From Deltaproteobacteria bacterium (GTDB lineage Bacteria > Desulfobacterota > Desulfobaccia > Desulfobaccales > 0-14-0-80-60-11), in the NCBI GenBank assembly GCA_030655955.1, contig JAUSOZ010000015.1, positions 1,669 through 65,668 of the forward strand: a stretch of DNA of 64,000 nucleotides, written 5' to 3'. The translations under genes were made by a program, and so were the position numbers. How positions within the stretch are numbered: the stretch's first letter is position 1; every line of letters begins with the position of its first letter. Under the pieces are notes generated by a model. The model worked only from the letters and a program-made list of their open reading frames with translations, ran no database searches and was not told the DNA's origin. Of the stretch, positions 19,846-57,064 are shown one piece after another.

Positions 19846-20435
19846 GCGGCTCTCCGGGCGCGCCGCGGCAAAAATTTCATCGGACGGCGCTGCCTTTTAC
19901 CCGCATATCGCGTTAAAATACCCTGATTTTTTGGTGAGGATGGGACAAACGCCCGCGTCGCTGTTTCATCACCCCAATTTTGTTCCGCCACCGGGGTCGT
20001 CTCTGTGCCGCTGCAGACCGGGGAGGTTTGGGCGGCAAGTGCGTTCCCAAGCAGGAGCTTGGGAACGAGAGGAAAATCAGATTCAAAGGGAGGCGGAGAG
20101 GCAGGTTTGCCTAGGCCCCCCCTCACCCCAGCCCTCTCCCCCCGAAGCGGGTGGAGAGGGGGTTAGAGGTGCCCAAGCAGAGCTTGGGCGGAAAGCGGCG
20201 TTCCCAAGTGCAACTTGGAAACGAGGGCGTAAAAGACAAATCCCCCCAAACCCCCCTTTTTCAAAGGGGGGCTTTTAGGAGCAGGGGCAAATGGCAGCAG
20301 TGCCAGGTCTACATTTACTCATGGTGCGCGGTGCGCACCCTACATTTCCTACATTTCTCTTTGCTTATAGGGGGTTGGGAGGGGAGGGTGGGGGATCGTT
20401 GATCCCCCAGTCTTCCCCTCAATTATTTTATCTCG
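19846..20435. repeat. 590-bp intergenic cluster of short palindromic repeats (families H, A, D, C)
   Basis: Contents: GTTCCCAAGCaggaGCTTGGGAAC (20043-20066), GCCCAAGCagaGCTTGGGC (20171-20189), GTTCCCAAGTgcaACTTGGAAAC (20200-20222), CCCTCTCC..GGAGAGGG (20132-20160), aaatcccccc..cccccctttttcaaagggggg (20238-20276) and ggtgcgcggtgcgcaccctac (20323-20343). Confidence 0.8.
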
Positions 20436-23006
20436 CTATCCGGCGGCGGCTTCTTGGGGGCGGAGGCATTTGAGGCCGTAGTCTCCGGTTTTGAAGGCGT
20501 TGAGGATGCGCTCCATGACGGCGTCGGAGGTCAGGGCCAGGTCGAGCTGGCGGCAGAAGGCGATGAGGAGTCCGGCCAGTTCCAGGGTCTGTTCGGTTTC
20601 CAGGAGGGAGAGCTTGACCAGGCGGCCCTGAACCAGGTCGCCTTTGGTCTGGGCCTTGAAGCCCAGGTCGTCCAGGATCCGTTTGACCAGGCGGGCCCGG
20701 CGCTCCCGGCGGTCGATGTTGGCGGCGCCGCCCTTGAATTGGAAGCTGATGTAGTTGTCGTTTTTCTCCTCCGAGATGAAGGCGTCGACGATGCCGAAGT
20801 GGTAGCCGATGCGGGAGTTGAAATTGAGGTAGGACTCGGTGACGATGGCGAAGCTCTTGCCCCCCAGGCCGCGCTCGGACTTGGCGGTGTCGTACATGGT
20901 GTTGGCAAAGACCGAGATGAAGCCCTTGAGGTCCGGGGCCACCTGGCCGGCCCAGACCACCCCGGGGTGGTGGAAGCCCCGGAGCAGGGCCTTGAAGGGG
21001 CGGCTTAAGATGTCGGCCTCGGTGACCTGCTCGGCGCCGGTTTCCCTAAGGCCGCCCCCCAGGTCGAGGATGAACAGATTGAGGGGCAGGTCGGTTTTGA
21101 GGCGGCTGACGTGATGGGATGCCAAGGCCTTCTCCATGTCCGGGATAAACATGGCGTCCATGGCCTTTTCGTGACAGAACCGGGTGATGTCGTGGAGGGT
21201 GCGGCAGTTAACCGCCTTAAACTCCGGGCTCTCGGGGTCGAGGAGGTTCAGGCGGGAGACGGATTTCAAGATGCGGCGCAATTTGAGGAAGACCGGGTCA
21301 CTGCGCCAGGCTTCATCCGGTTTCACCTGGCGGGCCAGCAACTCGTGCATGATGCCGGGATAGATGAGGGCGGCGTCGGCGTCGACGGTGACTATCTGGC
21401 CGGGGGTGAGGGTCTTGGTGGCGCCGCCCACCTCCACCAGGGTGGGAATGCGGAACTCCCGGGCCAGGATGCTCATGTGGCCGGTGGGACTGCCCACTTC
21501 GGTGATGATGGCGGCAATGCGGTCCATGACCAGCACCAGGCGGGCTGAGGGCTGGCGGCCCACCACCACGGCGCCGGGCGGAATGCGGCTGACATCTTCA
21601 TCGTGGAGGAAGAGGTGGACCCGGCCGGCGGCCACGCCCCCCACCGCCCGGATGCCGTGGTGGAGGATGGGCGCCACCATGGGTTCGGGGACGGGGGGCC
21701 GCTCCTCGGCGGCAAAGGCCGGGGCGCTGATCCTCAGGGGCCGGGATTGGAGGATGATGAGGTTGCCCGCCTCGCCCACGGTCCACTCGATATCCTGGGG
21801 GTGGCCGAAGTGGTCCTCCAATTGCAGGGCAATTTCGGCCAGGGTCCGGACCTGGTCGTCGGTGAGGCAGGGGGCCTGGGCCTGTTCCGGGGCCAGGGAA
21901 ATTTCTTCCACTCCCCCAGCCGGGCCACAGGTGAGGGCGACGGGTTTTTCGGCTACCCGGCGCTGGGTGATGGAGTGGGGGGCCTGCCGGCTCACCTGAA
22001 AGAGGTCCGGGGACACGGTGCCGTCCACGGCGTACTGGCCCAGGCCCCACACCGCCGAAATCATCACGGTGTCGTCCTGGGGGGCCTGGGGGTCCAGGGA
22101 GAACATGACGCCGCTGGCCCGGGCCGGGACCATGGCCAGGACGCCCACGGCCATGGGGAGCGAGTTGACGGAAAACTGTTGGTATTTCCAGTAGAAGATG
22201 GCGCGAGAGGTAAACTTGCTGGCCACGATCTCCTTGTAGTGACCGGGTAAGGATGCGGCGTCGACGTTCAAGAGGGTGGCGAACTGGCCGGCAAAAGAGA
22301 ATTCGGTGTCCTCGCCCACGGCGCTGGAGCGCACCGCCAGCCAGTGGGTGGGCAGGTCTTGGCCCGCCTGGACGATGGCTGCTTCCAGGTCCGGGGGCAG
22401 GGGGGCCCGGCGCACCATGGCCTGCAACTCCTGGCTGATGACCCTGAGGCTGTCCAGGTCTTCGATGTTGGCCTGGGAGAGTTTGTCGTAAAGGTCGGCG
22501 GCCAGGCTGGAGGATTCCAGGAAGCGTTTGTAGGCCGCGGCGGTAATGGAAAAGCCCTGGGGCACCGGCAGGCCGACGCGGTTGCCGATCTCGCCGAGGT
22601 TGGCCATCTTGCCGCCCACCGCCGGGGCCAGTTCCCGGTGCAGAGCCGATAGGGGCAGGATGAACGGGGTATCGGGGATGGTGGGGACCGCTTCCAACTC
22701 CGCCAGCATCTCGTCCTGCAGACGCCTACAGATGGGGACCAGGTCGGATTGATAGCGGTTGTTGGTCAGGAGGTTGAGGGCGTTTACCATACCGGAGACC
22801 TGTTCGCCCAGGGCATTCACCTGTGAAGAGATATAGCTGGAGTCAAAGACGAAATCGCCGGAGAGTTTTTCCTCCATGTCCGCCATGGTGTCCAGGGCCT
22901 GGTTGTTGTTGTCGAGCAGGCGCCGGAAATGGACAAATTTCTCCTGCAAACGGACCTGTTCGGTCGGTTCGGGGTCTTTGAGAAAGCGCCGCAGGAATTT
23001 TAGCAT
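20436..23006 (-). CDS. Dikinase-like protein P1: N-terminal helical region + PPDK-N ATP-grasp + phosphohistidine swivel domain + unrecognised ~300-aa C-terminal domain
   Basis: GGKMANLGEIGNRVGLPVPQGF, VRSSAVGEDTEFSFAGQ and PQDIEWTV..LIILQSRP indicate a PPDK-N / PEP-synthase nucleotide domain. GSPTGHMSILAREFRIPTLV is the swivel His. The C-terminal domain carries NCRTLHDITRF, LDLGGG, RIGYHF, NDNYISFQFKGGAA and RRERRARL. No PEP-utilizer TIM-barrel motifs are seen. Confidence 0.85.
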   Translation of the reverse strand: MLKFLRRFLKDPEPTEQVRLQEKFVHFRRLLDNNNQALDTMADMEEKLSGDFVFDSSYISSQVNALGEQVSGMVNALNLLTNNRYQSDLVPICRRLQDEMLAELEAVPTIPDTPFILPLSALHRELAPAVGGKMANLGEIGNRVGLPVPQGFSITAAAYKRFLESSSLAADLYDKLSQANIEDLDSLRVISQELQAMVRRAPLPPDLEAAIVQAGQDLPTHWLAVRSSAVGEDTEFSFAGQFATLLNVDAASLPGHYKEIVASKFTSRAIFYWKYQQFSVNSLPMAVGVLAMVPARASGVMFSLDPQAPQDDTVMISAVWGLGQYAVDGTVSPDLFQVSRQAPHSITQRRVAEKPVALTCGPAGGVEEISLAPEQAQAPCLTDDQVRTLAEIALQLEDHFGHPQDIEWTVGEAGNLIILQSRPLRISAPAFAAEERPPVPEPMVAPILHHGIRAVGGVAAGRVHLFLHDEDVSRIPPGAVVVGRQPSARLVLVMDRIAAIITEVGSPTGHMSILAREFRIPTLVEVGGATKTLTPGQIVTVDADAALIYPGIMHELLARQVKPDEAWRSDPVFLKLRRILKSVSRLNLLDPESPEFKAVNCRTLHDITRFCHEKAMDAMFIPDMEKALASHHVSRLKTDLPLNLFILDLGGGLRETGAEQVTEADILSRPFKALLRGFHHPGVVWAGQVAPDLKGFISVFANTMYDTAKSERGLGGKSFAIVTESYLNFNSRIGYHFGIVDAFISEEKNDNYISFQFKGGAANIDRRERRARLVKRILDDLGFKAQTKGDLVQGRLVKLSLLETEQTLELAGLLIAFCRQLDLALTSDAVMERILNAFKTGDYGLKCLRPQEAAAG

Positions 23007-23007
23007 A

Positions 23008-23055
23008 GTAGTCAGTGGTCAGTGGTCAGTAGCCAGTAGTCAGTTGTCAGTTGTC
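23008..23055. repeat. Tandem heptanucleotide array (GTCAGTG/GTCAGTA/GCCAGTA/GTCAGTT), abutting the P1 start codon
   Basis: gtcagtg gtcagtg gtcagta gccagta gtcagtt gtcagtt gtc. It begins 1-4 nt from the ATG (23006-23004, minus strand). It is the inverted complement of the array at 23116-23148. Confidence 0.85.
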
Positions 23056-23115
23056 TGGGGTTAGATAGAGGGCGTGCCGGGTGCCCCGGATTTGGCGGCC
23101 ACCAGGCCGCTCCAT

Positions 23116-23148
23116 AACTGACCACTGGCAACTGGCAACTGACTACTG
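23116..23148. repeat. Tandem heptanucleotide array (AACTGAC/CACTGGC/AACTGGC), overlapping the response-regulator stop codon
   Basis: aactgac cactggc aactggc aactgac tactg is the reverse complement of CAGTNGT-type units. It can pair with 23008-23055 across a ~60-nt spacer. Confidence 0.85.
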
Positions 23149-23547
23149 TTTTTTCAAGGCGGCCAGTTCCCCTTGCATGCGCTTCCACTCCAGGGCCCGC
23201 TTGATGGTGATGAGGATGGTCTCCTTGCGGAAGGGCTTGGTGATAAAATCGTAGGCGCCTTTCTGGATGGCCTCTTCGGCGGTCTCAATGGTGCCGTAGG
23301 CGGTAATGACAATAATGGGCATGGTAACGTCGATATTCTTGACGATGCCGATGAGGTCGATGCCATCCACCAGGGGCATTTTGAGATCGGTGACCACTAA
23401 GTCGTAATGACTATCCTGGAGCAATTTGCTCACTTCCAGGGGATTGTTGGTCGTGGTAACCTCATAGCCGGTCTTATCCATCAGGATAGTTTTCAGCAAT
23501 CTGAGCATATTGGGTTCATCGTCAACGACCAGTATCCGCTCCGGCAT
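23143..23547 (-). CDS. Single-domain (CheY-like) response regulator
   Basis: ILVVDDEP, LVVTDLKMP, VITAYG and DFITKPF. At 134 aa there is no output domain. Confidence 0.9.
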   Translation of the reverse strand: MPERILVVDDEPNMLRLLKTILMDKTGYEVTTTNNPLEVSKLLQDSHYDLVVTDLKMPLVDGIDLIGIVKNIDVTMPIIVITAYGTIETAEEAIQKGAYDFITKPFRKETILITIKRALEWKRMQGELAALKKQ

Positions 23548-23574
23548 CTTATCCTCCTGTCCTGAAAAGTTCCC

Positions 23575-23602
23575 GTAGGGGCGGTTCGCGAACCGCCCCT
23601 AC
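23575..23602. repeat. Family-B hairpin GTAGGGGCGGttcgcgaaCCGCCCCTAC between the kinase and regulator genes
   Basis: Perfect 10-bp stem located in the 63-bp gap between the HK stop (23611) and the RR start (23547). Confidence 0.7.
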
Positions 23603-23610
23603 AACTCTCT

Positions 23611-25932
23611 TTACGAGATAACTGCGGTTTGATTCGGCGGGGCCTGTTCCAGGCCGTTCGCCTCGGCCTCGGGGCCGGAAATAATGGGGAGGTAAACGGT
23701 AAACGTGGTGCCATGCTTTCCGGGATATTCATCGGCGGGGTAACTGGTGAAGATGATGTTCCCGCCGAATTTGGTGATAATGCCGTAGCTCATGGACAGG
23801 CCCAGGCCGGTGCCTTTGCCGGTCTCCTTGGTGGTGAAGAAGGGGTCGAAGATCTTGGCCTGGGCCTCCCGGGGGATGCCGGCGCCGGTGTCGATAAATT
23901 CGATGGCGACGCGTTTGCCGTCGGGGCTGAGCGCGGTAAGGACCTTGAGGATCCCGCCCCCCGCCATGGCGTCGGCGGCATTGTTGACCAGATTGATGAA
24001 GACCTGCTGCAGTTCCGGGGGGTCACCCTTGACCCGGGGGAGGCCCGGGGCCAGGCTGGTTTCCAGGCGGATCTTTTTGGTCAGCAGGGTGTTCTTCACC
24101 ACGGCCAGGGTTTTTTCCAGGAGGCCGGAAACCTCGGCGCTGGTTTCGCTCACCTGGGGGATGCGGGCGAAGGTGAGGATGTTTTCGACGATTTTTTTGC
24201 ACCGGAGCCCTTCGTCCTCGATGACCTGGAGGGTTTCGTGGATCTCGGGCATGGACTCGGTCTGCTCCAGGAGGTGCTCGGTGAATCCCAGGATCACGGT
24301 CATGGGATTATTGATCTCATGGGCCACCCCCGCGGCCAGGGTGCCGATGGAGGCGAGCTTCTCCATGTTGATCATCCGGTCTTCAATGGCTTTGCGGCCG
24401 GTGATGTTCCGGGAAATGATCTCGTAGGCAAAGGTATCGCCGTGTTCATCTTTGATGCCCACGATGCTGGTGGAAAACCAGAATTCCTGGTCGCCGATGG
24501 ACACCGGGTGGCGCTTGCTTCTGACCCTGTTCGTCTCCTTGACTTCCCGGAGCCATTCCATGTGGAAGTCGGCGGATTTTTGATTGAAGATGTCGTTCAA
24601 GGTGCGCCCGACAAACTCCTGGGATGTCCCCTGGATGACGCCGCCGGTGGTTGCGGGCTTTACCGAGGATCGGGCGGTGGCGAAGAGGTTGGCGGCGTAG
24701 CGGTTGATGGACAGGACACGGCCGTCGGCGTCCACGGAGTAGATCAGGTCGGCGGCGTTTTCCACCAGGCCCTGATACCGGGCCTCTGATTTCTGCAACT
24801 TCTCCTTCTGGCGGTTGACCTCTTCTTCCAGGCTGGAAGAAAACTGCTGCTCGTAGCGGAAATTCAGCATGACGATGGTGCCGGACAGGACCACCAGGCC
24901 GATGATGACCTGGAGGTAGAACTGCCGGGTATAGAGGGTATGGATCACGCCTTCGACTTCGCTGGCCGGGGCCACCACCGCCACTGACCAGGAGGTGGCC
25001 GGTTTAGTCTCCTGGACCAGGTTTTGTTCTTCCAACTGTACCGGGGCATAGGCCATGAGCTTTTGAATCTCTCCCGCCATGCCGCGATGCCAGCCGGAGA
25101 TATAAGTGCCCCAGCCTTCTTTGCCGGCCAGCATTTTTTCGCGCTGAATCTGGTTGATGGCGTCGAAGGAGATGGCGGGCATCCGTTCTTTGCGCACCGT
25201 AAAGGCGTTCTTGCCGATGAAGTCGCGTTCCGGATGACTGAGAAATATGCCCTTGCTATCCATGATCCAGGCATAACCGGTTTTGCCGCTCTGAATACCC
25301 TGGGTAAACTTTTTGGCCAGGGCATGGGCATCGATATAAAACACCAGCACCCCGCTGAAAGCCCCGGAGGGGTGGGGATGGGTTTCGTCCACCGACATCT
25401 CATAGGTGGGCACGGCCATGACGAAGATGAGCCGGCCGACGTAATGGGGAATCTCGGTGGACACCGGCATCACCAGGACCTGGCCCTTGTGTTCCGGTTG
25501 GGCGGCCCAGGAGAGGAACGAGGTGTCCTTGAAGGAGCCGGTGGTGATCTGATCCACCCCCCGGGAGTCCATCTGAAAAGCCCGGTTGCCGTCGGCACTG
25601 ATACGCAGGATCTCCACCACGCCTTCTTCCCGGACGGAAGCCAGGGTGGCCCGCATGCGGTTGGCCCAGGACAGGGGCTCCAGGTATTGGATGGAAGGGG
25701 AGAAGTTGAGGGTGCTCAGTTCCCGTTTGAGGAAGTTGATATCCTGCTCCAGCAGGCTGGCGGTATATTTGGCCAGCACCAACTGCTGCTGGTTGAAGTC
25801 TTCCTTGACGATCTCCTTCATCTGGTTGGCGGACATGAGGCCCAGATAGATGCTGATCCCCAGCAGGGCGAAATTGACCGCCAACAATAAAGCCAGGGCG
25901 TAGCGGGAGGCGAGAAACGGGAAGCGGCGCAT
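23611..25932 (-). CDS. Sensor histidine kinase with periplasmic Cache-like domain, PAS, HisKA, HATPase
   Basis: TM1 (ALALLLAVNFALLGISIYLGL), a ~300-aa extracytoplasmic region with Cache-like features (GYAWIMDSKGIFLSHP) and TM2. These are followed by a PAS domain (YQGLVENAADLIYSVDADGRV), H-box AAGVAHEINNP, N-box LVNNAADAM, and G-boxes DTGAGI / GTGLGLS. Confidence 0.9.
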   Translation of the reverse strand: MRRFPFLASRYALALLLAVNFALLGISIYLGLMSANQMKEIVKEDFNQQQLVLAKYTASLLEQDINFLKRELSTLNFSPSIQYLEPLSWANRMRATLASVREEGVVEILRISADGNRAFQMDSRGVDQITTGSFKDTSFLSWAAQPEHKGQVLVMPVSTEIPHYVGRLIFVMAVPTYEMSVDETHPHPSGAFSGVLVFYIDAHALAKKFTQGIQSGKTGYAWIMDSKGIFLSHPERDFIGKNAFTVRKERMPAISFDAINQIQREKMLAGKEGWGTYISGWHRGMAGEIQKLMAYAPVQLEEQNLVQETKPATSWSVAVVAPASEVEGVIHTLYTRQFYLQVIIGLVVLSGTIVMLNFRYEQQFSSSLEEEVNRQKEKLQKSEARYQGLVENAADLIYSVDADGRVLSINRYAANLFATARSSVKPATTGGVIQGTSQEFVGRTLNDIFNQKSADFHMEWLREVKETNRVRSKRHPVSIGDQEFWFSTSIVGIKDEHGDTFAYEIISRNITGRKAIEDRMINMEKLASIGTLAAGVAHEINNPMTVILGFTEHLLEQTESMPEIHETLQVIEDEGLRCKKIVENILTFARIPQVSETSAEVSGLLEKTLAVVKNTLLTKKIRLETSLAPGLPRVKGDPPELQQVFINLVNNAADAMAGGGILKVLTALSPDGKRVAIEFIDTGAGIPREAQAKIFDPFFTTKETGKGTGLGLSMSYGIITKFGGNIIFTSYPADEYPGKHGTTFTVYLPIISGPEAEANGLEQAPPNQTAVIS

Positions 25933-25939
25933 AATTTTT

Positions 25940-28489
25940 CTATTTACCCACGTGTTCCTGCACGAAGTCCTTAATATACCATTCTACAATACTATCCGAA
26001 AACAGCACCATGTCCAGTTGTTTGGTGTAATGCGTGAGTTTACCCAGCAGGGTGAGCCGCTGGGCCATCTGCTCGGCGGGGTATTTGGCGAGACGGGCCT
26101 CGATGAGCTCGCCTTTGCGCCGGTGATTCAGGTGGAGGTGGTCGATGATGGCCTCGATGAGGCGGGCGCGGCGCTCCCGGCGCTCCGGGGTGGAGCCGCC
26201 GCCCCGGAACCCGAAGGTGAGGTAGTTGTCGTTCACCTGGTCCGAGACGTAGGCCTCCACCGTGGAGAGATGATACCCCAGGCGGATGCTGAAATTCATG
26301 TAATTTTTGGCGAGCACGACATAACTCTGGTCCCGCCAGGGGTCGGCGCCCTGGGCCACCTCGGCCTCGCCCTTGACAAAGACCGAGGACAGGCTCTTGA
26401 CCCCGGCGGGTGCAGCCTGGGCCCAGCGCATGGCGGTGAGGCCCTTCCAGAAGGCCTGGAAGGGGAGGGAGTCCACCTGTTCGGGTTTGACCTTGCGGCC
26501 CCAGCCCCTTTTCAGCACGCCGCCCAGATCCAGGATTCTGACCTTGATGGGCAGCCCGGAATCCAGGTCCACGACCTCGCCGGCGGTGTCGATTTCATTT
26601 TCCGCCAGGCGGAACATTTCCCGCATGGAATATTCGTGGGCGTAGCGCACGATGTCATGGATGGTGCGGCAGTGAGACGGTGAGAACGTGGCGTCATCTT
26701 CGGGATTGATCAGGTTCAAGGGGACGATCTTTTGCACCACATTCTTTAAGGTTTGAAACACCGGGCTGTCAGCCAGGTCATTTTTTTTATGCCGCAGTTC
26801 CAGGAGTTCCGGGATCAGGCCGGCGTAGACGTTATTATAGTTGGCGTCCACGGTGACCACTTGTCCGGGTTGCAGGATTTGGGTGGCGTTGCCGGTATTG
26901 AGAATGGTGGGGACCTGGAATTCCCGGGCCAGGAGGGCCATGTGGCCGGTGGGGCTGCCGGCGTCGGTAAGGATGGCGGCGGTCTGGGGCATGACGGTGA
27001 CATATTTGGTTGAGGTGTGGCGGGCCACCAGGACGCTGCCGGCGGGGAAGTTCTTCAGATCCGCATCCCGGCGCACCAGGAACACCGGACCGGCCCCGAC
27101 GCCGCGGCAGGCTACGGTGCCGTGGTCAATGAGCACGGCATGCTCCTTCAGGGTCCGGGCCGGCGGCTCCGGGGTCTTGGGGGGCGGGAGCTGCAGCGGC
27201 CGGCTCTGGAGGAGCCAGAGGGCCCCGGTTTCATCCAGGGCCCACTCCACGTCCTGGGGTTTGGCGAAATGGGCCTCCAGGGTGGCGGCCCAGTGCACCA
27301 GTTGGGTAATCTGGCCCTGGTCCAGGCAGGGGGCGCTGACCAGCTCCGGCGGCACCGGCACCTCGGCTTCGCCGCCCTGGGGCCGGCAGACCAGCATGAC
27401 CTCCTTGGGGGGAATCGTTTGGGCCAGGACCTGGCCCGGCGGCTGGTAGGCCACCAGGTAGTGATCCGGGTTGATGACGCCGCCTACGGCGTATCTGCCC
27501 AAGCCCCAGACGGCGTTGATGAAGGCAGCCTCCTGGCCGGCGTCATCGGGCTGGCGGGTGAAGAGCACCCCGCTGGCCCGGGCCTGGATCATGGGCATCA
27601 CCACCACGCCCATGGCCATCTCTTCTTCCTTGAACCCCTTGTTCTTGTAGTAAAACAGGGCGCGAGGAGTGAACAGGCTGGCGACGATATCCTTATAGCG
27701 GCTGCTGAGGGATTCGGGGGCCACGTTGAGATAGGTGGCGTACTGGCCGGCGAAGGTCAGGGTGAGGTCCTCGCCCACGGCGGAAGAGCGCATGGCCACC
27801 CGGGGCCGGCGGGGCTCCCGGGCCGCCAGGCGCTCGTAGGCCTCGGTGATGGCCGCCTCCAGTTCCGGGGGTACTTGGGCCGCGAGGATCATCTGCTTTA
27901 AGTCCTCGCTGACCCGGGCCAGGCTGTCCAGATCATCCAGGCGCCAGTGCCCCAGCAATTCCGTCAGCCGGGCCGCCAGGTGATTGTGATCCAGGAAAAC
28001 CTTGTAGGCGTGGGTGGAAATGGCAAAGCCGGCGGGGACCGGCAGGCCCACGCGGTTTTTGACCTCCCCCAGATTGGCGTTTTTGCCCCCCACCACGTCA
28101 CCCATGGTGGCGTTGATGGCCTCGAAGTCAATCACCAGGGGGGCTACGGGGATCTCGCGGCGGTGGGTCAGGACTGCCTCCACCTCCCGGCTGATGCGGG
28201 CCAGGGCCTCGGACAGCCCTTGATAGCGGTTGCCCCCCAAGCCATTGAGGGCATCGACCAACTTGGCCGTTTCCTGGTGGAGTTGACTGACCGCGGCGCG
28301 GATGTATTGGAGGTCAAACAGGTAGTCGCCCGACAGCTTCTCTTCCATGTCGGCCATCAGGGTCAGGACCTGGTTGTTGGCGGAGAGCAAGGCCTGAAAG
28401 TGGGTGTATTTTTCCGCCAGCTCCGCCTGGGTTTTACCCGGCGTGGCCTTGGTAAGACGTTGCCAGGCGCGTTTCAGGGTGGTCACCAT
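25940..28489 (-). CDS. Dikinase-like protein P2 (paralog of P1/P3)
   Basis: Same architecture: GGKNANLGEVKNRVGLPVPAGF, MRSSAVGEDLTLTFAGQ, PQDVEWAL..LWLLQSRP and swivel GSPTGHMALLAREFQVPTIL. The C-terminal domain has HCRTIHDIVRY, LDLGG, RLGYHL, NDNYLTFGFRGGGS and RRERRARL. The stop lies 7 nt before the HK start. ATG at 28489 (after GGGGAG) is preferred over the TTG at 28507. Confidence 0.85.
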   Translation of the reverse strand: MVTTLKRAWQRLTKATPGKTQAELAEKYTHFQALLSANNQVLTLMADMEEKLSGDYLFDLQYIRAAVSQLHQETAKLVDALNGLGGNRYQGLSEALARISREVEAVLTHRREIPVAPLVIDFEAINATMGDVVGGKNANLGEVKNRVGLPVPAGFAISTHAYKVFLDHNHLAARLTELLGHWRLDDLDSLARVSEDLKQMILAAQVPPELEAAITEAYERLAAREPRRPRVAMRSSAVGEDLTLTFAGQYATYLNVAPESLSSRYKDIVASLFTPRALFYYKNKGFKEEEMAMGVVVMPMIQARASGVLFTRQPDDAGQEAAFINAVWGLGRYAVGGVINPDHYLVAYQPPGQVLAQTIPPKEVMLVCRPQGGEAEVPVPPELVSAPCLDQGQITQLVHWAATLEAHFAKPQDVEWALDETGALWLLQSRPLQLPPPKTPEPPARTLKEHAVLIDHGTVACRGVGAGPVFLVRRDADLKNFPAGSVLVARHTSTKYVTVMPQTAAILTDAGSPTGHMALLAREFQVPTILNTGNATQILQPGQVVTVDANYNNVYAGLIPELLELRHKKNDLADSPVFQTLKNVVQKIVPLNLINPEDDATFSPSHCRTIHDIVRYAHEYSMREMFRLAENEIDTAGEVVDLDSGLPIKVRILDLGGVLKRGWGRKVKPEQVDSLPFQAFWKGLTAMRWAQAAPAGVKSLSSVFVKGEAEVAQGADPWRDQSYVVLAKNYMNFSIRLGYHLSTVEAYVSDQVNDNYLTFGFRGGGSTPERRERRARLIEAIIDHLHLNHRRKGELIEARLAKYPAEQMAQRLTLLGKLTHYTKQLDMVLFSDSIVEWYIKDFVQEHVGK

Positions 28490-28624
28490 CGCTCCCCATT
28501 GCCGCAAATATAGACAGGACTGCCATTGGCATCAAACAATCAAAAATTATATCAAATTTTAGCTCAATTGCCAGTCCGCTCCGGCTGGCGCCCGGGCGTA
28601 TTTTGGGGCAAGGAACGGGGAGAG

Positions 28625-28657
28625 AGTAGTCAGTAGCCGGTGGGCAGTGGTCAGTGC
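28625..28657. repeat. Degenerate CAGTNGY heptamer array
   Basis: agtagt cagtagc cggtggg cagtggt cagtgct. A partially complementary array gactatc gaccact gccagtt lies at 28785-28810. Confidence 0.6.
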
Positions 28658-28682: not shown

Positions 28683-28768
28683 GTAGGGAGCGTCTCACGC
28701 GCCATTCGTGGTGCGTAAGACGCACCCTACGAAGGGAAACGGCCTTTTTGAACGCAACTCGGCATCAG
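28683..28768. repeat. Composite repeat: long family-C hairpin (GTAGGGAGCGTCTCACGC..GCGTAAGACGCACCCTAC) + TTTTTGAACGCAACTCGGCATCAG module
   Basis: The C module recurs at 31783 and 43829. The TTGAACGCAACTCGG.ATCAG module recurs inverted at 31855-31881 and as a truncated TTTTTGAACG at 43856. Confidence 0.7.
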
Positions 28769-31782: not shown

Positions 31783-31804
31783 GGTGCGTAGGACGCACCC
31801 TACG
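31783..31804. repeat. Family-C hairpin GGTGCGTAGGACGCACCCTACG
   Basis: Identical 22-mer at 43829-43850. One-base variant at 28709-28730. Confidence 0.8.
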
Positions 31805-37962: not shown

Positions 37963-38046
37963 CTATGATGAGGGGGAACGCATCTGCTTTTCCGCTCCTG
38001 TTTCTAACCTGATCCCACCGCCGTGAGGCCCATGAGGAGAAGACCT

Positions 38047-38913
38047 ATGTCTGCTGCCAGCCCTTCAGCCCCTTTCCCCAAAATCCTGGTGTGTACCGAC
38101 GGCTCCCCTGACAGTGAAGGGGCCATCAGCGCCGCGCTTAATCTGGCCAAGACCACGGGAAGCACGGTCTTTCTCCTGGAAGTGCTGTTCTACCTGGCGG
38201 GATATGAGCTGCAGGCGCCGGATACCCTGGCGCCGCCAATAGTCAATATGGAATTGATGCAGGCCCAGGAGACCGCGGTGAGGGAGCGGTTAGAGGCCCG
38301 GAAGGCTGAGGCTGCCGGGGAGGGGATAACCCTGGAGCCCCGGGTCCGGACCGGGTCCTCGGCCTATGAGGGTATTTTGGAGGAAGTCGGTGAATCCCAG
38401 CCCGACCTGATTATCATGGGCCGCCACGGCTATACCGGTCTGACCCGGTTGCTCATGGGCAGTGTCACCGCCCGGGTCATCGGCCACAGCCCCTGCGACG
38501 TTCTGGTGGTGCCCCGGGAAGTTCCCTTAAGTTTTAAAAGCCTCCTGGTCGCCAGCGACGGCTCGCCGTTCAGCGAGGCCGCCTGGACCAAAGCGCTCCT
38601 GTTGGCCAAGACCATGGGCAGCGCCCTGATCGGGGTGGCGGTGGCCGCCTCCGACCGGGATATCCCGGCGGCGACGCAAGTGGTCCGGGGCCTGGAGGCG
38701 GCCGCCAGCGAGCAGGGGATCGCCCTGGACACCATGATTCCCATGGGCCGGCCGGAGGAGGGCATCGTCAAGGCGGCGGATTTCAAGGGCGCCAGCCTCA
38801 TCATCGTGGGCAGCCACGGCCGCACCGGCTTGAAGCGGCTCCTCATGGGTTCGGTGGCGGAACGGGTCATCGGCCACGCCAAATGCCCGGTGCTGGTGGT
38901 GAAGAAGAAGTGA
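38047..38913 (+). CDS. Tandem universal stress protein (two USP domains), second gene
   Basis: The ATG at 38047 is preceded by GAGGAGAAG. Repeats: ILVCTDGS ... DLIIMGRHGYTGLTRLLMGSVTARVIGHSPCDVLVV and LLVASDGS ... SLIIVGSHGRTGLKRLLMGSVAERVIGHAKCPVLVV. Confidence 0.9.
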   Translation: MSAASPSAPFPKILVCTDGSPDSEGAISAALNLAKTTGSTVFLLEVLFYLAGYELQAPDTLAPPIVNMELMQAQETAVRERLEARKAEAAGEGITLEPRVRTGSSAYEGILEEVGESQPDLIIMGRHGYTGLTRLLMGSVTARVIGHSPCDVLVVPREVPLSFKSLLVASDGSPFSEAAWTKALLLAKTMGSALIGVAVAASDRDIPAATQVVRGLEAAASEQGIALDTMIPMGRPEEGIVKAADFKGASLIIVGSHGRTGLKRLLMGSVAERVIGHAKCPVLVVKKK

Positions 38914-38938
38914 GCAGTGAGCAGTAAGCAGTGAGCAG
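38910..38938. repeat. Tandem heptamer array (GTGAGCA/GTAAGCA) starting at the USP stop codon
   Basis: gtgagca gtgagca gtaagca gtgagca g, with the TGA stop at 38911-38913 inside the first unit. The 22-mer GTGAGCAGTAAGCAGTGAGCAG (38917-38938) is identical to 43150-43171. Confidence 0.9.
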
Positions 38939-41410: not shown

Positions 41411-41596
41411 AAATATTCTCTGGGAAATGCGAGAAGTTTCACATATTCGGGTTGACAGGCGCCGCAAAAGTAAATAATCTCCCCTAGTCCATTAAACCTA
41501 GTCCATGAAAATCGTTCCAGCTTTTTGGCCCGGGAGTTGTGCCGGGCCGGGCGGGGTTATGCGGGGGCGAGGGGTTACGATAAAAAGGAGTTACCT

Positions 41597-43150
41597 ATGA
41601 AGACCGTGGCCGAGAAGATCCGGGAGTTGAAGGAGAAGGAGGAGCAGATCAAGGGGATGGGTGGTGCCAAGGCTGTGGAGAAGCAGCGGGCCAGCGGCAA
41701 GCTCACCGCCCGGGAGCGGTTGGATTTGTTCTTTGACCCGGGGACCTTTCGGGAGACCGATATTTTTGTGACGCACCGCTGCGTCAACTTCGGCATGGAG
41801 AAGGTGGAGATCCCGGCGGACGGGGTGGTCACCGGCTTTGGGAAGGTGAACAATCGCCCGGTGTTCGCCTTTGCCCAGGACTTCACCAGCCGCGCCGGGT
41901 CGCTGGGGGAGATGCACAGCAAGAAGATCTGCAAGGTCATGGACCTGGCCTTGAAGGCCGGGGTGCCGTTTGTGGGGTTCAACGACTCCGGCGGGGCCCG
42001 CATCCAGGAGGGCGTGGATTCTTTGAGCGCCTACGGGCAGATTTTCTATAGGAACGCCATCGCCAGCGGCGTCATTCCCCAGGTCTCCGCCATCATGGGA
42101 CCCACCGCCGGGGGCGCGGTCTACTCGCCGGCCATGACGGATTTCATCTTCATGGTGAAGAACACGTCGTACATGTTCATCACCGGCCCCGACGTCATCA
42201 AGAGCGTCACCGGGGAGGAGATCAGCTTCGAGGCCCTGGGCGGCGCCATGGCCCACAACACCAAGTCCGGGGTGGCCCACTTCGCCTGCGAGTCCGACAG
42301 TGATGCCATCGACCAGATCAAGCGCCTGTTAAGCTACCTGCCCAACAATAACATGGAAGACCCGCCGCTTACGCCCACCGCCGACCCTGCCGGCCGGGAG
42401 GCGCCGGAGTTGGACGCCATTATCCCGGACAGCGCCGGGCAATCTTATGACATGCACGACGTCATCCGTGCCATCGTGGACGACGGCGAGTTCTTCGAGC
42501 CCCACGCCCATTTCGCCGGCAACATGGTGGTGGCCCTGGCGCGTATGGGCGGCCGGCCCATCGGCATCATCGCCAACAACCCCAGGGTGCTGGCGGGCTG
42601 CCTGGACTGCGACGCGGCGGACAAGGCCACGCGGTTCATCCGCTTCTGCGACGCCTTCAACATTCCGCTCTTAACCATCGCCGACGTGCCCGGGTACCTG
42701 CCGGGGAGCGACCAGGAGTGGCAGGGCATCATCCGGCACGGGGCCAAGCTGTTGTGGTGCTACTCCGAGGCCACGGTGCCCAAGATCACCCTGGTGACCC
42801 GGAAGGACTACGGCGGCTCGTACCTGGCCATGTGCTCCCAGGACCTGGGGGCCGACATGGTCATCGCCTGGCCCACGGCTGAGATTGCGGTGATGGGGGC
42901 GGGGGGTGCGGCCAACGTCATCTTCCGGAAAGAGATCAAGGCGGCGGCGGACCCGGTGGCCAAGCGGGCCGAGATCATCGACAATTACGAGACCCTGCTC
43001 TACAACCCGTACATTGCCGCATCGCGAGGCTTTGTGGACCAGGTGATCACGCCCCGGGAGACCAGGCCGCGGCTCATCGAGGCGTTGGAGATCCTGAGCA
43101 CCAAGCGGGAGACGTTGCCGGCCAAGAAGCACGGCAATATTCCGGTTTAG
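41597..43150 (+). CDS. Methylmalonyl-CoA/propionyl-CoA carboxyltransferase (12S-type) subunit
   Basis: The ATG at 41597 is preceded by AAGGAG. Motifs: GKLTARERLDLFFDPGTF, FAQDFTSRAGSLGEMH, GGARIQEG, MGPTAGGAVYSPA, GQSYDMHDVI, PGYLPG..QEW.GIIRHGAKLL. Confidence 0.9.
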   Translation: MKTVAEKIRELKEKEEQIKGMGGAKAVEKQRASGKLTARERLDLFFDPGTFRETDIFVTHRCVNFGMEKVEIPADGVVTGFGKVNNRPVFAFAQDFTSRAGSLGEMHSKKICKVMDLALKAGVPFVGFNDSGGARIQEGVDSLSAYGQIFYRNAIASGVIPQVSAIMGPTAGGAVYSPAMTDFIFMVKNTSYMFITGPDVIKSVTGEEISFEALGGAMAHNTKSGVAHFACESDSDAIDQIKRLLSYLPNNNMEDPPLTPTADPAGREAPELDAIIPDSAGQSYDMHDVIRAIVDDGEFFEPHAHFAGNMVVALARMGGRPIGIIANNPRVLAGCLDCDAADKATRFIRFCDAFNIPLLTIADVPGYLPGSDQEWQGIIRHGAKLLWCYSEATVPKITLVTRKDYGGSYLAMCSQDLGADMVIAWPTAEIAVMGAGGAANVIFRKEIKAAADPVAKRAEIIDNYETLLYNPYIAASRGFVDQVITPRETRPRLIEALEILSTKRETLPAKKHGNIPV

Positions 43151-43177
43151 TGAGCAGTAAGCAGTGAGCAGTAAAAG
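43150..43177. repeat. Tandem heptamer array (GTGAGCA/GTAAGCA) starting at the carboxyltransferase stop codon
   Basis: ta|gtgagca gtaagca gtgagca gtaaaag. It shares an identical 22-mer with 38917-38938. Confidence 0.9.
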
Positions 43178-43195
43178 AGTGGTGATTGCAGGTTT

Positions 43196-43237
43196 TTGAA
43201 CCTTGAATCTTGAACTTTGAACTTTGAACTTTGAACT
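43196..43237. repeat. Tandem heptamer array (TTGAACY x6)
   Basis: ttgaacc ttgaatc ttgaact ttgaact ttgaact ttgaact. It ends 12 nt before the ATG at 43250. Confidence 0.9.
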
Positions 43238-43828: not shown

Positions 43829-43850
43829 GGTGCGTAGGACGCACCCTACG
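43829..43850. repeat. Family-C hairpin GGTGCGTAGGACGCACCCTACG
   Basis: Identical to 31783-31804. It is followed by aaaaaCTTTTTGAACG, as at 28741-28752. Confidence 0.8.
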
Positions 43851-43866
43851 AAAAACTTTTTGAACG

Positions 43867-43901
43867 GAAAACGGAAAACCGAAAACGGAAAACTGAAAAA
43901 A
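43867..43901. repeat. Tandem heptamer array (GAAAACN x5)
   Basis: gaaaacg gaaaacc gaaaacg gaaaact gaaaaaa. Confidence 0.9.
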
Positions 43902-43915
43902 GCGGTTTGTTTTAA

Positions 43916-43950
43916 AGCTGACAGCTGACGGCTGACAGCTGAAAGCTGAC
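43916..43950. repeat. Tandem heptamer array (AGCTGAC x5)
   Basis: agctgac agctgac ggctgac agctgaa agctgac. It ends 5 nt before the AAGGAG RBS of the 43967 gene. Confidence 0.9.
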
Positions 43951-57043: not shown

Positions 57044-57064
57044 GTAGGGTGCGCACCGCGCACC
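57044..57064. repeat. Family-C variant GTAGGGTGCGCACCGCGCACC
   Basis: Exact reverse complement of the 21-mer at 20323-20343. Confidence 0.8.

Follow-up and report, generated by a model that had tools for sequence, protein, structure and literature searches.

The window analysed here, namely the whole 64-kb stretch of contig JAUSOZ010000015.1, carries on its minus strand a four-gene cluster (28507..20436) which encodes, in the order of transcription, a PPDK_N/PEP-utilizer protein, a histidine kinase, a stand-alone response regulator (the receiver) and a second PPDK_N/PEP-utilizer protein, designated P1 (Table 1). The subject of this analysis is the 136-nt spacer between the receiver stop codon and the P1 ATG at 23006, which is made up of an array of heptanucleotide units on the stop codon (array A), a GC-rich core and a second, inverted array before the start codon (array B). 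This architecture had been proposed in a preliminary description of the sequence, and the output of Tandem Repeats Finder (TRF) and the open reading frame (ORF) positions bear it out. The arrays are real and represent a new lineage and a new unit family of a known class of intergenic heptanucleotide repeats, including the inverted-pair arrangement known for that class. They are not a dedicated or new kind of riboregulator.

Array A begins within the receiver gene, the 3′ end of which reads AAA AAA CAG TAG, with the last sense codon (CAG) and the stop codon (TAG, 23145-23143) forming the first unit of the array. The sense units are CAGTAGT, CAGTTGC, CAGTTGC, CAGTGGT and CAGTT; the array lies where the preliminary description had placed it, but the CAGTNGT type given there does not hold strictly, CAGT being followed by AGT, TGC, TGC, GGT and TAT, respectively. 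Array B reads (GA)CAACTGA CAACTGA CTACTGG CTACTGA CCACTGA CCACTGA CTACT on the sense strand and constitutes the entire leader of P1; its proximity to the ATG had been recognized, but the supposed gap of 1-4 nt is absent, the array reaching the base just before the start codon. The three-unit CAGT pattern CAGTNNNCAGTNNNCAGT (at most one mismatch) has 15 matches in the window against an expected 0.15. Arrays A and B share the unit dialect CAGT[A/G/T]G[T/C], and the arrays at 38.9 and 43.1 kb are of the form CAGT[G/A]AG. A coding function of the arrays, as part of ORFs 23012..23188 (minus strand), 22876..23064 or 23081..23254 (both plus strand), was rejected, as orthologous arrays differ in length by multiples of 7 nt rather than 3 nt. 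The 7-nt units are contiguous and lack spacers, and hence do not constitute a CRISPR locus.

The core contains the hairpin GCGGCC-tggt-GGCCGC, which had been noted before, although the base quoted as preceding it is an A rather than a G. It matches a conserved element, TTATAGGGCGGCCyGTGGCCGCC...GGCACGCCCTATA, of about 20 orthologous spacers, with an nhmmer match at 23119-23061 (E = 1.3e-13). Related loci contain 23 further nhmmer matches, nearly all of which fall within this spacer and run in the sense direction, and no second copy of the core occurs in the 64-kb window. The core can therefore be rejected as a dispersed repetitive extragenic palindromic (REP) sequence or miniature inverted-repeat transposable element (MITE), which would be expected as many dispersed copies of one unit, the 24 matches being almost restricted to the orthologous spacer. 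It was also rejected as a structured RNA, since RNAalifold analysis of 15 cores yielded one invariant hairpin without covariation (covariation term: +0.45) and the core alone folds no better than shuffled sequences (z = -1.07).

The ATG at 23006-23004 is the true start codon of P1. When the variability at each codon position was compared across 64 distinct orthologues, codons 2-11 (FKFLRRFLKE) hardly varied at positions 1 and 2, the variation falling on position 3, while the 30 nt upstream of the ATG showed flat variability (0.53/0.55/0.55) and contained an in-frame stop codon in 31 of the orthologues. This pattern, from codon 2 onward, rules out a downstream start with its own ribosome-binding site, the alternative against which the annotated start had to be checked. 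As previously remarked, no Shine-Dalgarno (SD)-like run precedes the ATG: GGAG, GAGG and AGGA are absent from the 25 nt before it, and the same motifs and AAGG are absent 3-13 nt upstream.

The two arrays are complementary in several registers offset by 7 nt, of which two match at 85% over 33 nt and a third at 81% over 31 nt, and the best two A:B duplexes reach -44.6 and -40.3 kcal/mol, in agreement with the long, register-slippery stem envisaged earlier. The minus-strand region 22990-23160 folds with -69.2 kcal/mol (z = -6.18), a value that none of 200 shuffled controls attained, and z ranged from -6.2 to -6.9 between calculations. This signal is due wholly to 29 A:B pairs, from 23148:23013 to 23116:23045. 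When pairing of array A is forbidden the energy changes to -29.1 kcal/mol, a contribution of ~40 kcal/mol by the A:B pairs; on its own, array A folds with -3.5 kcal/mol (z = -0.07), and the 49 nt of array B, with -1.7 kcal/mol, are unstructured. In the minimum free energy (MFE) structure, pairing takes up 11 of the last 20 nt before the P1 AUG and the stem stops 7 nt before the A of the AUG. The initiation region thus lies partly within the stem, as had been suggested, but the AUG itself is not buried. With the receiver stop codon and 13 nt held single-stranded, none of these 20 nt are paired.

An intrinsic terminator or attenuator and an internal promoter are not supported, as a scan of 22800-23700 revealed no promoter-like or terminator-like site on the minus (coding) strand, an absence which is consistent with co-transcription of the receiver and P1 genes. 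The stem is followed by ACUACUAUG and does not take the form of a GC-rich stem with a U-tract. Nor does any known Rfam family match: a search of 22500-23700 (E <= 1) returned only mir-3913, whose 27.3 bits fall well short of the gathering score (100), and this match reflects a generic long hairpin.

Variation of the spacer among related loci

Judging by the orthologues of P1, the window belongs to a Desulfobaccales/Desulfobacca-like lineage; the closest of them, at 95% amino acid identity, comes from a metagenome-assembled genome. The receiver-to-P1 synteny is found in 28 sources, including the window, and further such loci were obtained from metagenomes (related loci are labelled L001, L041 and so forth). 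The metagenome scan yielded no contig of the same strain (best match: 92%), and the exact receiver protein of the window has no database record. Most of about 60 orthologous Desulfobaccales spacers share the layout described above and differ in units, copy number and middle part. Their units include CAGTAGT/ACTACTG, CAGTGAG/CTCACTG and CAGTTAG/CTAACTG, with a period-14 type (CGCAACCCGTAACT) in L025, their copy numbers range from 0 to about 17 (12/11 for the two arrays of L041, about 13/17 for L080), and their middle part is either the conserved core or an insertion. By a crude count of 69 distinct spacers, both arrays are present in 25, only array A in nine, only array B in twelve and neither in 23. 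The receiver C-terminus ...KKQ* is common to the array-bearing orthologues and differs in those without arrays.

The arrays evolve far faster than their flanks. Array B differs between L011 and L027, the flanks of which are 99.25% identical, and array A comprises about one unit in L012 and six in L031, with flanks 95.9% identical. The suggestion of a length-variable element accordingly holds among relatives, but phase variation within a population is unproven, given that spacer length is the same wherever the flanks of two loci are 100% identical, one such pair differing by a single substitution.

The receiver-P1 spacer is also an insertion hotspot in the relatives, with both arrays retained. 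The inserts are located between array A/core and array B and consist of a PF05635 gene, an AbiGi-like gene or AT-rich DNA, and both arms persist around such cargo of 400-900 nt. The PF05635 gene (1.2e-40) encodes a four-helix-bundle '23S rRNA intervening sequence protein' (IVP) and lies in the loop of at least eight relatives, while the AbiGi-like gene (1.2e-08) is AT-rich. Insert loci are found at 5544-5900 of L041, at the same position in L104, L092, L098, L080, L084, L004 and L030, and at 5079-5888 of L001. The layout, a gene within a long stem, resembles that of rRNA intervening sequences. The spacer of L081 (about 1270-1500) contains a tandem duplication that takes in array B, ~45 nt from the 5′ end of the P1 coding sequence and a second copy of the core, which suggests recombination or slippage between arrays.

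These insertions bear on three alternative explanations of the arrays. If they acted on DNA rather than as an RNA signal, by forming a cruciform or a hotspot of recombination at which small gene cassettes could land, it would be expected that all three kinds of insert occupy the same interval, and the L081 duplication and the strand-symmetric complementarity of the arms would also be accommodated. However, there is no recombinase gene next to the spacer, copies of the core are not scattered and every IVP copy in the data belongs to the one locus without any sign of mobility, and we consider this explanation very improbable. The more specific proposal of an array-IVP-array mobile cassette is not supported either, as all eleven tblastn matches to the IVP gene (in ten loci) lie in the receiver-P1 spacer.

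Alternatively, the A:B duplex may be an RNase III site, cleavage of which would separate the receiver and P1 mRNAs, leave P1 with a very short leader and, in the relatives, excise the loop gene. The length of the stem, 29 bp in the window and as much as ~80 bp in L041, would suit such a role, as would the loop PF05635 gene of the relatives with its analogy to 23S rRNA intervening sequences and the precedent of hmw1A, in which a heptanucleotide hairpin arm is cleaved and expression raised (PMC12721329). The argument is one of analogy, however. Mismatches interrupt the stem every few bp, the unpaired arrays elsewhere cannot act in this manner, and the prospects of this explanation appear slim.

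The persistence of array B where the sequence upstream has been replaced by an insert or AT-rich DNA (L001, L004, L020, L030, L041, L082 and L086) can also be read as the mark of a single-stranded platform, on which array B would recruit ribosomes without an SD sequence through S1 or a binder of the Csp/CsrA type, array A being incidental. Array B adjoins an SD-less ATG in the window and in many orthologues, is unstructured on its own and occurs without array A in twelve spacers. Arrays of this kind are furthermore found genome-wide in BOGUAY (PMC4679880), and in Nostoc the deletion of heptanucleotide repeats near a start codon changes reporter output. Against this, no binding protein is known for any heptanucleotide class, the matching of array A within each genome is left unexplained, and the diversity of units (ACTGACC, CTCACTG, GCTAACT, CGCAACC) fits an effect of composition better than a sequence-specific binder. 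A platform role is improbable.

Other heptanucleotide arrays and neighbouring features

Period-7 arrays dominate the tandem repeats of the window, and seven of them are intergenic according to TRF. The view of the receiver-P1 spacer as a locus-specific control element cannot be upheld, as many of these arrays are unpaired and they form a lineage-wide class; no inverted partner was found for any other period-7 array of the window. The array at 28631..28655 precedes the start of the PPDK_N paralogue by ~125-140 nt, shares the unit dialect of array B and has counterparts at the equivalent position in L022 and L024. The second heptanucleotide family, (C/T)TTGAAC, also occurs in the kinase-receiver spacer of L017 (5378-5409), L029 (5376-5402), L030 (5103-5136) and L007 (144-167); its arrays are always sense-oriented and closely precede, by a few nt, an SD sequence and start codon.

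Table 1. Genes, arrays and hairpins of the 64-kb window
Feature	Position	Strand	Details
PPDK_N/PEP-utilizer protein, paralogue of P1	28507..25940	-	
dCache-PAS histidine kinase	25932..23611	-	
Receiver gene, stand-alone response regulator	23547..23143	-	134 aa; Pfam PF00072, 1.7e-30
Array A, 5′ arm, G/U-rich, after stop	23148-23116	-	TRF period 7, 4.7 copies, 80% matches
GC-rich core	23056..23115	-	~60 nt; ..GCGGCCtggtGGCCGC..CCGGGgcaCCCGG..GGCACGCCCTCTAT
Array B, 3′ arm, G-poor/C-rich, before start	23055-23007	-	TRF period 7, 7.0 copies, 88% matches
P1, PPDK_N + PEP-utilizer mobile-domain	23006..20436	-	856 aa; Pfam PF01326, 1.1e-87; PF00391, 1.8e-18
Degenerate ACTG-type array	28631..28655	-	ACTGACC ACTGCCC ACCGGCT ACTGACT ACT
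After-stop array AGTGAGC/AGTAAGC	38909..38938	+	Unpaired; supplies TGA stop of ORF 38023..38913
After-stop array AGTGAGC/AGTAAGC	43149..43174	+	Unpaired; starts on TAG stop of ORF 41525..43150
(C/T)TTGAAC x6, second heptanucleotide family	43195..43237	+	Just 5′ of GAGGTGGAG and ATG 43251
AACGGAA x5	43863-43899	+	
AGCTGAC x5	43916-43950	+	5′ of AAGGAG and ATG 43967
REP-like hairpin	20323-20343	-	
REP-like hairpin	28710-28730	-	
REP-like hairpin	31783-31803	-	
REP-like hairpin	43829-43849	-	
REP-like hairpin	57044-57064	+	

The related loci, 428 kb in total, yielded 73 arrays of period 7/14, about 63 of which are intergenic. In a sample of the window and 34 related loci, arrays on or following a stop codon have a G content of 0.32 and a C content of 0.18 on the sense strand, and those preceding a start codon 0.165 and 0.32, respectively (n = 22 each; p about 1e-4 and 1e-5, the cases being phylogenetically non-independent). 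Given this polarity, a spacer flanked by genes of the same orientation can carry arrays of one family at its two ends only as inverted complements of each other. As a unit of 7 nt is not divisible by 3, after-stop arrays also stop all three reading frames within three units. Units of the forms CAG-TGA-G, CAG-TAA-G and CAG-TAG-T provide the preceding gene with its stop codon at 38909-38938 and 43149-43174 in the window (two unrelated genes), at 8557-8588 in L033 and at 8613-8643 in L018.

The gene cluster itself is conserved, with two paralogous PPDK_N + PEP-utilizer proteins of ~855 aa flanking the kinase and receiver. In both paralogues the PEP-utilizer domain ends near residue 545-556 of ~855 and no Pfam match lies C-terminal of it, while all their matches to NCBIfam phosphoenolpyruvate (PEP)-synthase models fall far under the cut-offs. 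The 63-nt kinase-receiver spacer contains a perfect 28-nt palindrome, GTAGGGGCGGTTCGCGAACCGCCCCTAC (23575-23602), in place of which relatives have an AACTTTG-type heptanucleotide array. The REP-like hairpin GTAGGGTGCG-N(3-9)-CGCACC is present in five copies in the window against none expected, and also within the receiver-P1 spacers of L017, L007 and L085.

Possible role of the paired arrays

We tentatively favour an explanation in which the arrays are slippage repeats with a forced inverted polarity, and the stem they form attenuates P1 translation and couples it to termination at the receiver gene. Replication slippage would make and resize the arrays, which would be tolerated in a fixed polarity (G-rich on or just after a stop codon, G-poor/C-rich just before a start codon), while DNA-level exchange would keep the arms alike at the receiver-P1 locus. 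On a putative co-transcript of the receiver and P1 genes, the arms would zip into an imperfect, register-slippery stem of ~29 bp, with the receiver UAG in its base and its end 7 nt short of the P1 AUG, which lacks an SD sequence. Termination at the receiver stop codon would then bring a ribosome that melts the stem base and exposes the G-poor, unstructured array B leader. We infer that the stem folds in vivo in this manner and that P1 expression may be tied to receiver translation, the strength of attenuation and coupling being set by the repeat number and drifting with it.

Several features of the orthologous spacers are in line with such a role. Those bearing arrays show z < -2 in 88% of 33 cases (median: -3.4), compared with 48% of 29 array-less spacers. 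Arms pair more strongly with their partner in the same genome (mean: -38.5 kcal/mol) than with arms of other genomes (-29.4 kcal/mol), a difference reached in none of 5000 permutations. In about 18 of 23 orthologues, furthermore, the stem starts -8 to -1 nt from the receiver stop codon and ends -21 to +10 nt from the ATG.

The same arrays may, however, be a neutral by-product, slippage repeats which fill tolerant non-coding space, with their inversion arising from the polarity rule, their similarity from inverted duplication or quasipalindrome template switching, and a hairpin that is not selected. Many spacers contain arrays with unrelated units, frequently without a partner, and presence, unit and copy number turn over quickly, as in the L011/L027 and L012/L031 pairs. 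Spacers with array A only, array B only or no array are common, the arms show no G.U bias, and distant orthologues do with plain spacers of 32-78 nt. Heptanucleotides are moreover the commonest class of long simple sequence repeats (SSRs) in many bacteria, a pattern ascribed to polymerase slippage (Mrazek 2007, as cited in PMC4679880). Yet a stem of about -40 kcal/mol over the ribosome-landing region of an SD-less, conserved gene of 856 aa would hardly be without effect on expression. The arms have a locus-specific dialect unlike that of the other arrays of the genome, both are kept around inserted genes, and about half of the array-less orthologous spacers are significantly structured as well. 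On this evidence a purely neutral origin seems somewhat unlikely.

The preferred explanation, translational attenuation and coupling by the stem, must in turn accommodate a number of observations that weigh against it. The P1 AUG is mostly unpaired in the MFE structure, and in several orthologues a GGAG separates array B from the start codon. Among the 69 spacers of the crude count, nine have A only, twelve B only and 23 neither, and orthologues under about 58% identity have short, plain, unstructured spacers of 32-78 nt without arrays. The unit dialects of the two arms are mismatched in L010, L031, L006 and L011/L027, and in spacers that bear arrays the copy number of one arm shows no significant correlation with that of the other (rho 0.20); the Spearman coefficient of 0.49 over all spacers is driven by presence and absence, and coupled expansion of the arms is not supported. 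Finally, an unbiased best-register alignment of the arms of 29 distinct spacers gave 782 Watson-Crick pairs, 33 G.U, 36 A.C and 64 transversion-type mismatches. Selection for a helix in the sense RNA should favour G.U well over A.C, and their parity therefore indicates strand-symmetric complementarity; an RNA-level wobble signature is absent. This sequence pattern points to DNA-level homogenisation or only weak selection, rather than RNA-level selection, as the probable source of arm similarity.

A more far-reaching variant is that the arrays form an evolvable RNA 'zipper', defining an intervening segment in a coding operon, which would bring a stop codon next to an SD-less start, permit termination-coupled initiation or RNase III excision and carry cargo such as the PF05635 and AbiGi-like genes in its loop. 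We regard this as a long shot. If true, the zipper would be an mRNA counterpart of rRNA intervening sequences and would provide a function for the heptanucleotide repeat class.

Comparison with known heptanucleotide repeat systems

Intergenic heptanucleotide arrays have been known for decades, the short tandemly repeated repetitive (STRR) sequences of cyanobacteria dating from 1990. The STRR units, said to have been described by Mazel and co-workers in that year, are reportedly CCCCAGT, TTGGTCA and CAACAGT, two of the three with a CAGT core. Three tandem heptanucleotides of Calothrix PCC 7601 are mentioned, at second hand, in PMC4692102. In Nostoc PCC 7120, deletion of a start-codon-near heptanucleotide repeat with the unit TTTTGAA alters reporter output (bioRxiv 10.1101/2022.06.06.494920), and this unit is one base away from the (C)TTTGAA arrays of the window (43195-43237). 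The cyanobacterial STRR and TTTTGAA arrays are likewise tandem, intergenic heptanucleotides, but their hosts and units differ from those described here, and the literature searches revealed no stop-to-start inverted pairing for them.

The closest parallel in arrangement is found in Xanthomonas (GGGAATC) and Nostoc (GGGGA(C/T)T), in which arrays lie mostly between co-oriented ORFs, the G-rich sense arrays overlapping a stop codon or no more than 50 bp from it and the antisense arrays in the last 50 bp before an ORF (Rehm 2015, PMC4692102). Each Xanthomonas genome contains 70-75 convergent pairs, the paired or single type is kept between species while lengths differ, and most arrays are transcribed (PMC4692102). 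The arrays of the receiver-P1 spacer are similarly intergenic with a period of 7, follow the same polarity, with array A overlapping the TAG, and retain their inverted pairs while lengths change (about 25 of 69 spacers, 0-17 units). They differ in lacking G-tracts of three or more (CAGTAGT, CAGTTGC and CAGTGGT contain at most GG), which makes a G-quadruplex inapplicable, in their degenerate CAGT/ACTG unit family and in their host phylum, Thermodesulfobacteriota.

Array B finds its counterpart in the TAACTGA repeats of marine Beggiatoaceae, which are also known from some Cyanobacteria and Bacteroidetes (PMC4679880). A Beggiatoaceae genome (BOGUAY) contains 170 TAACTGA sets, 132 of which point to a start codon without a ribosome-binding site, mostly ending 1 nt upstream of it; the arrays are unstructured alone, and binding of S1, Csp or CsrA has been proposed (MacGregor 2015, PMC4679880). 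Array B is also in forward orientation, ends at the start codon (seven copies, ending at 23007), lacks an SD sequence and is unstructured alone, and some TAACTGA sets overlap an upstream stop codon, as array A does. The exact unit is, however, absent from array B, which is composed of CAACTGA, CTACTGG, CTACTGA and CCACTGA, while L012, L017, L081, L082 and L085 carry TAACTGC units. The BOGUAY repeats are of the exact unit only, with related heptanucleotides rarely repeated, whereas the first two and last positions vary in the window. Only one inverted repeat occurs among the 170 BOGUAY sets, in contrast to the window, where a CAGT array on the stop codon pairs with the start-side array.

A heptanucleotide repeat as a hairpin arm is known from hmw1A of H. 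influenzae, where the 5′ untranslated region (UTR) folds into a long hairpin that has (ATCTTTC)n as one arm and is cleaved by RNase III, a tested case of post-transcriptional control that depends on an SSR (Rapun-Araiz et al. 2025, PMC12721329). Both cases involve a heptanucleotide SSR as a hairpin arm upstream of a gene, with a hairpin length that changes with repeat number. In hmw1A, however, the second arm is a non-repeat G-rich sequence, the 5′-UTR is monocistronic and both phase variation and RNase III cleavage have been demonstrated, while the element of the window has two array arms, is intercistronic and is known from sequence alone.

A literature search found no published report of such arrays in Desulfobaccales, and the present loci extend the heptanucleotide class to Thermodesulfobacteriota. 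The about 60 versions of one spacer, with arrays absent or of up to 17 copies, varied units, paired or unpaired arms, and with or without an SD sequence or insert gene, represent a natural mutant series that bears on whether such arrays tune translation, processing or recombination. The stop-side/start-side polarity and the presence of an array instead of a ribosome-binding site recur across phyla, which suggests a common constraint on heptanucleotide arrays.

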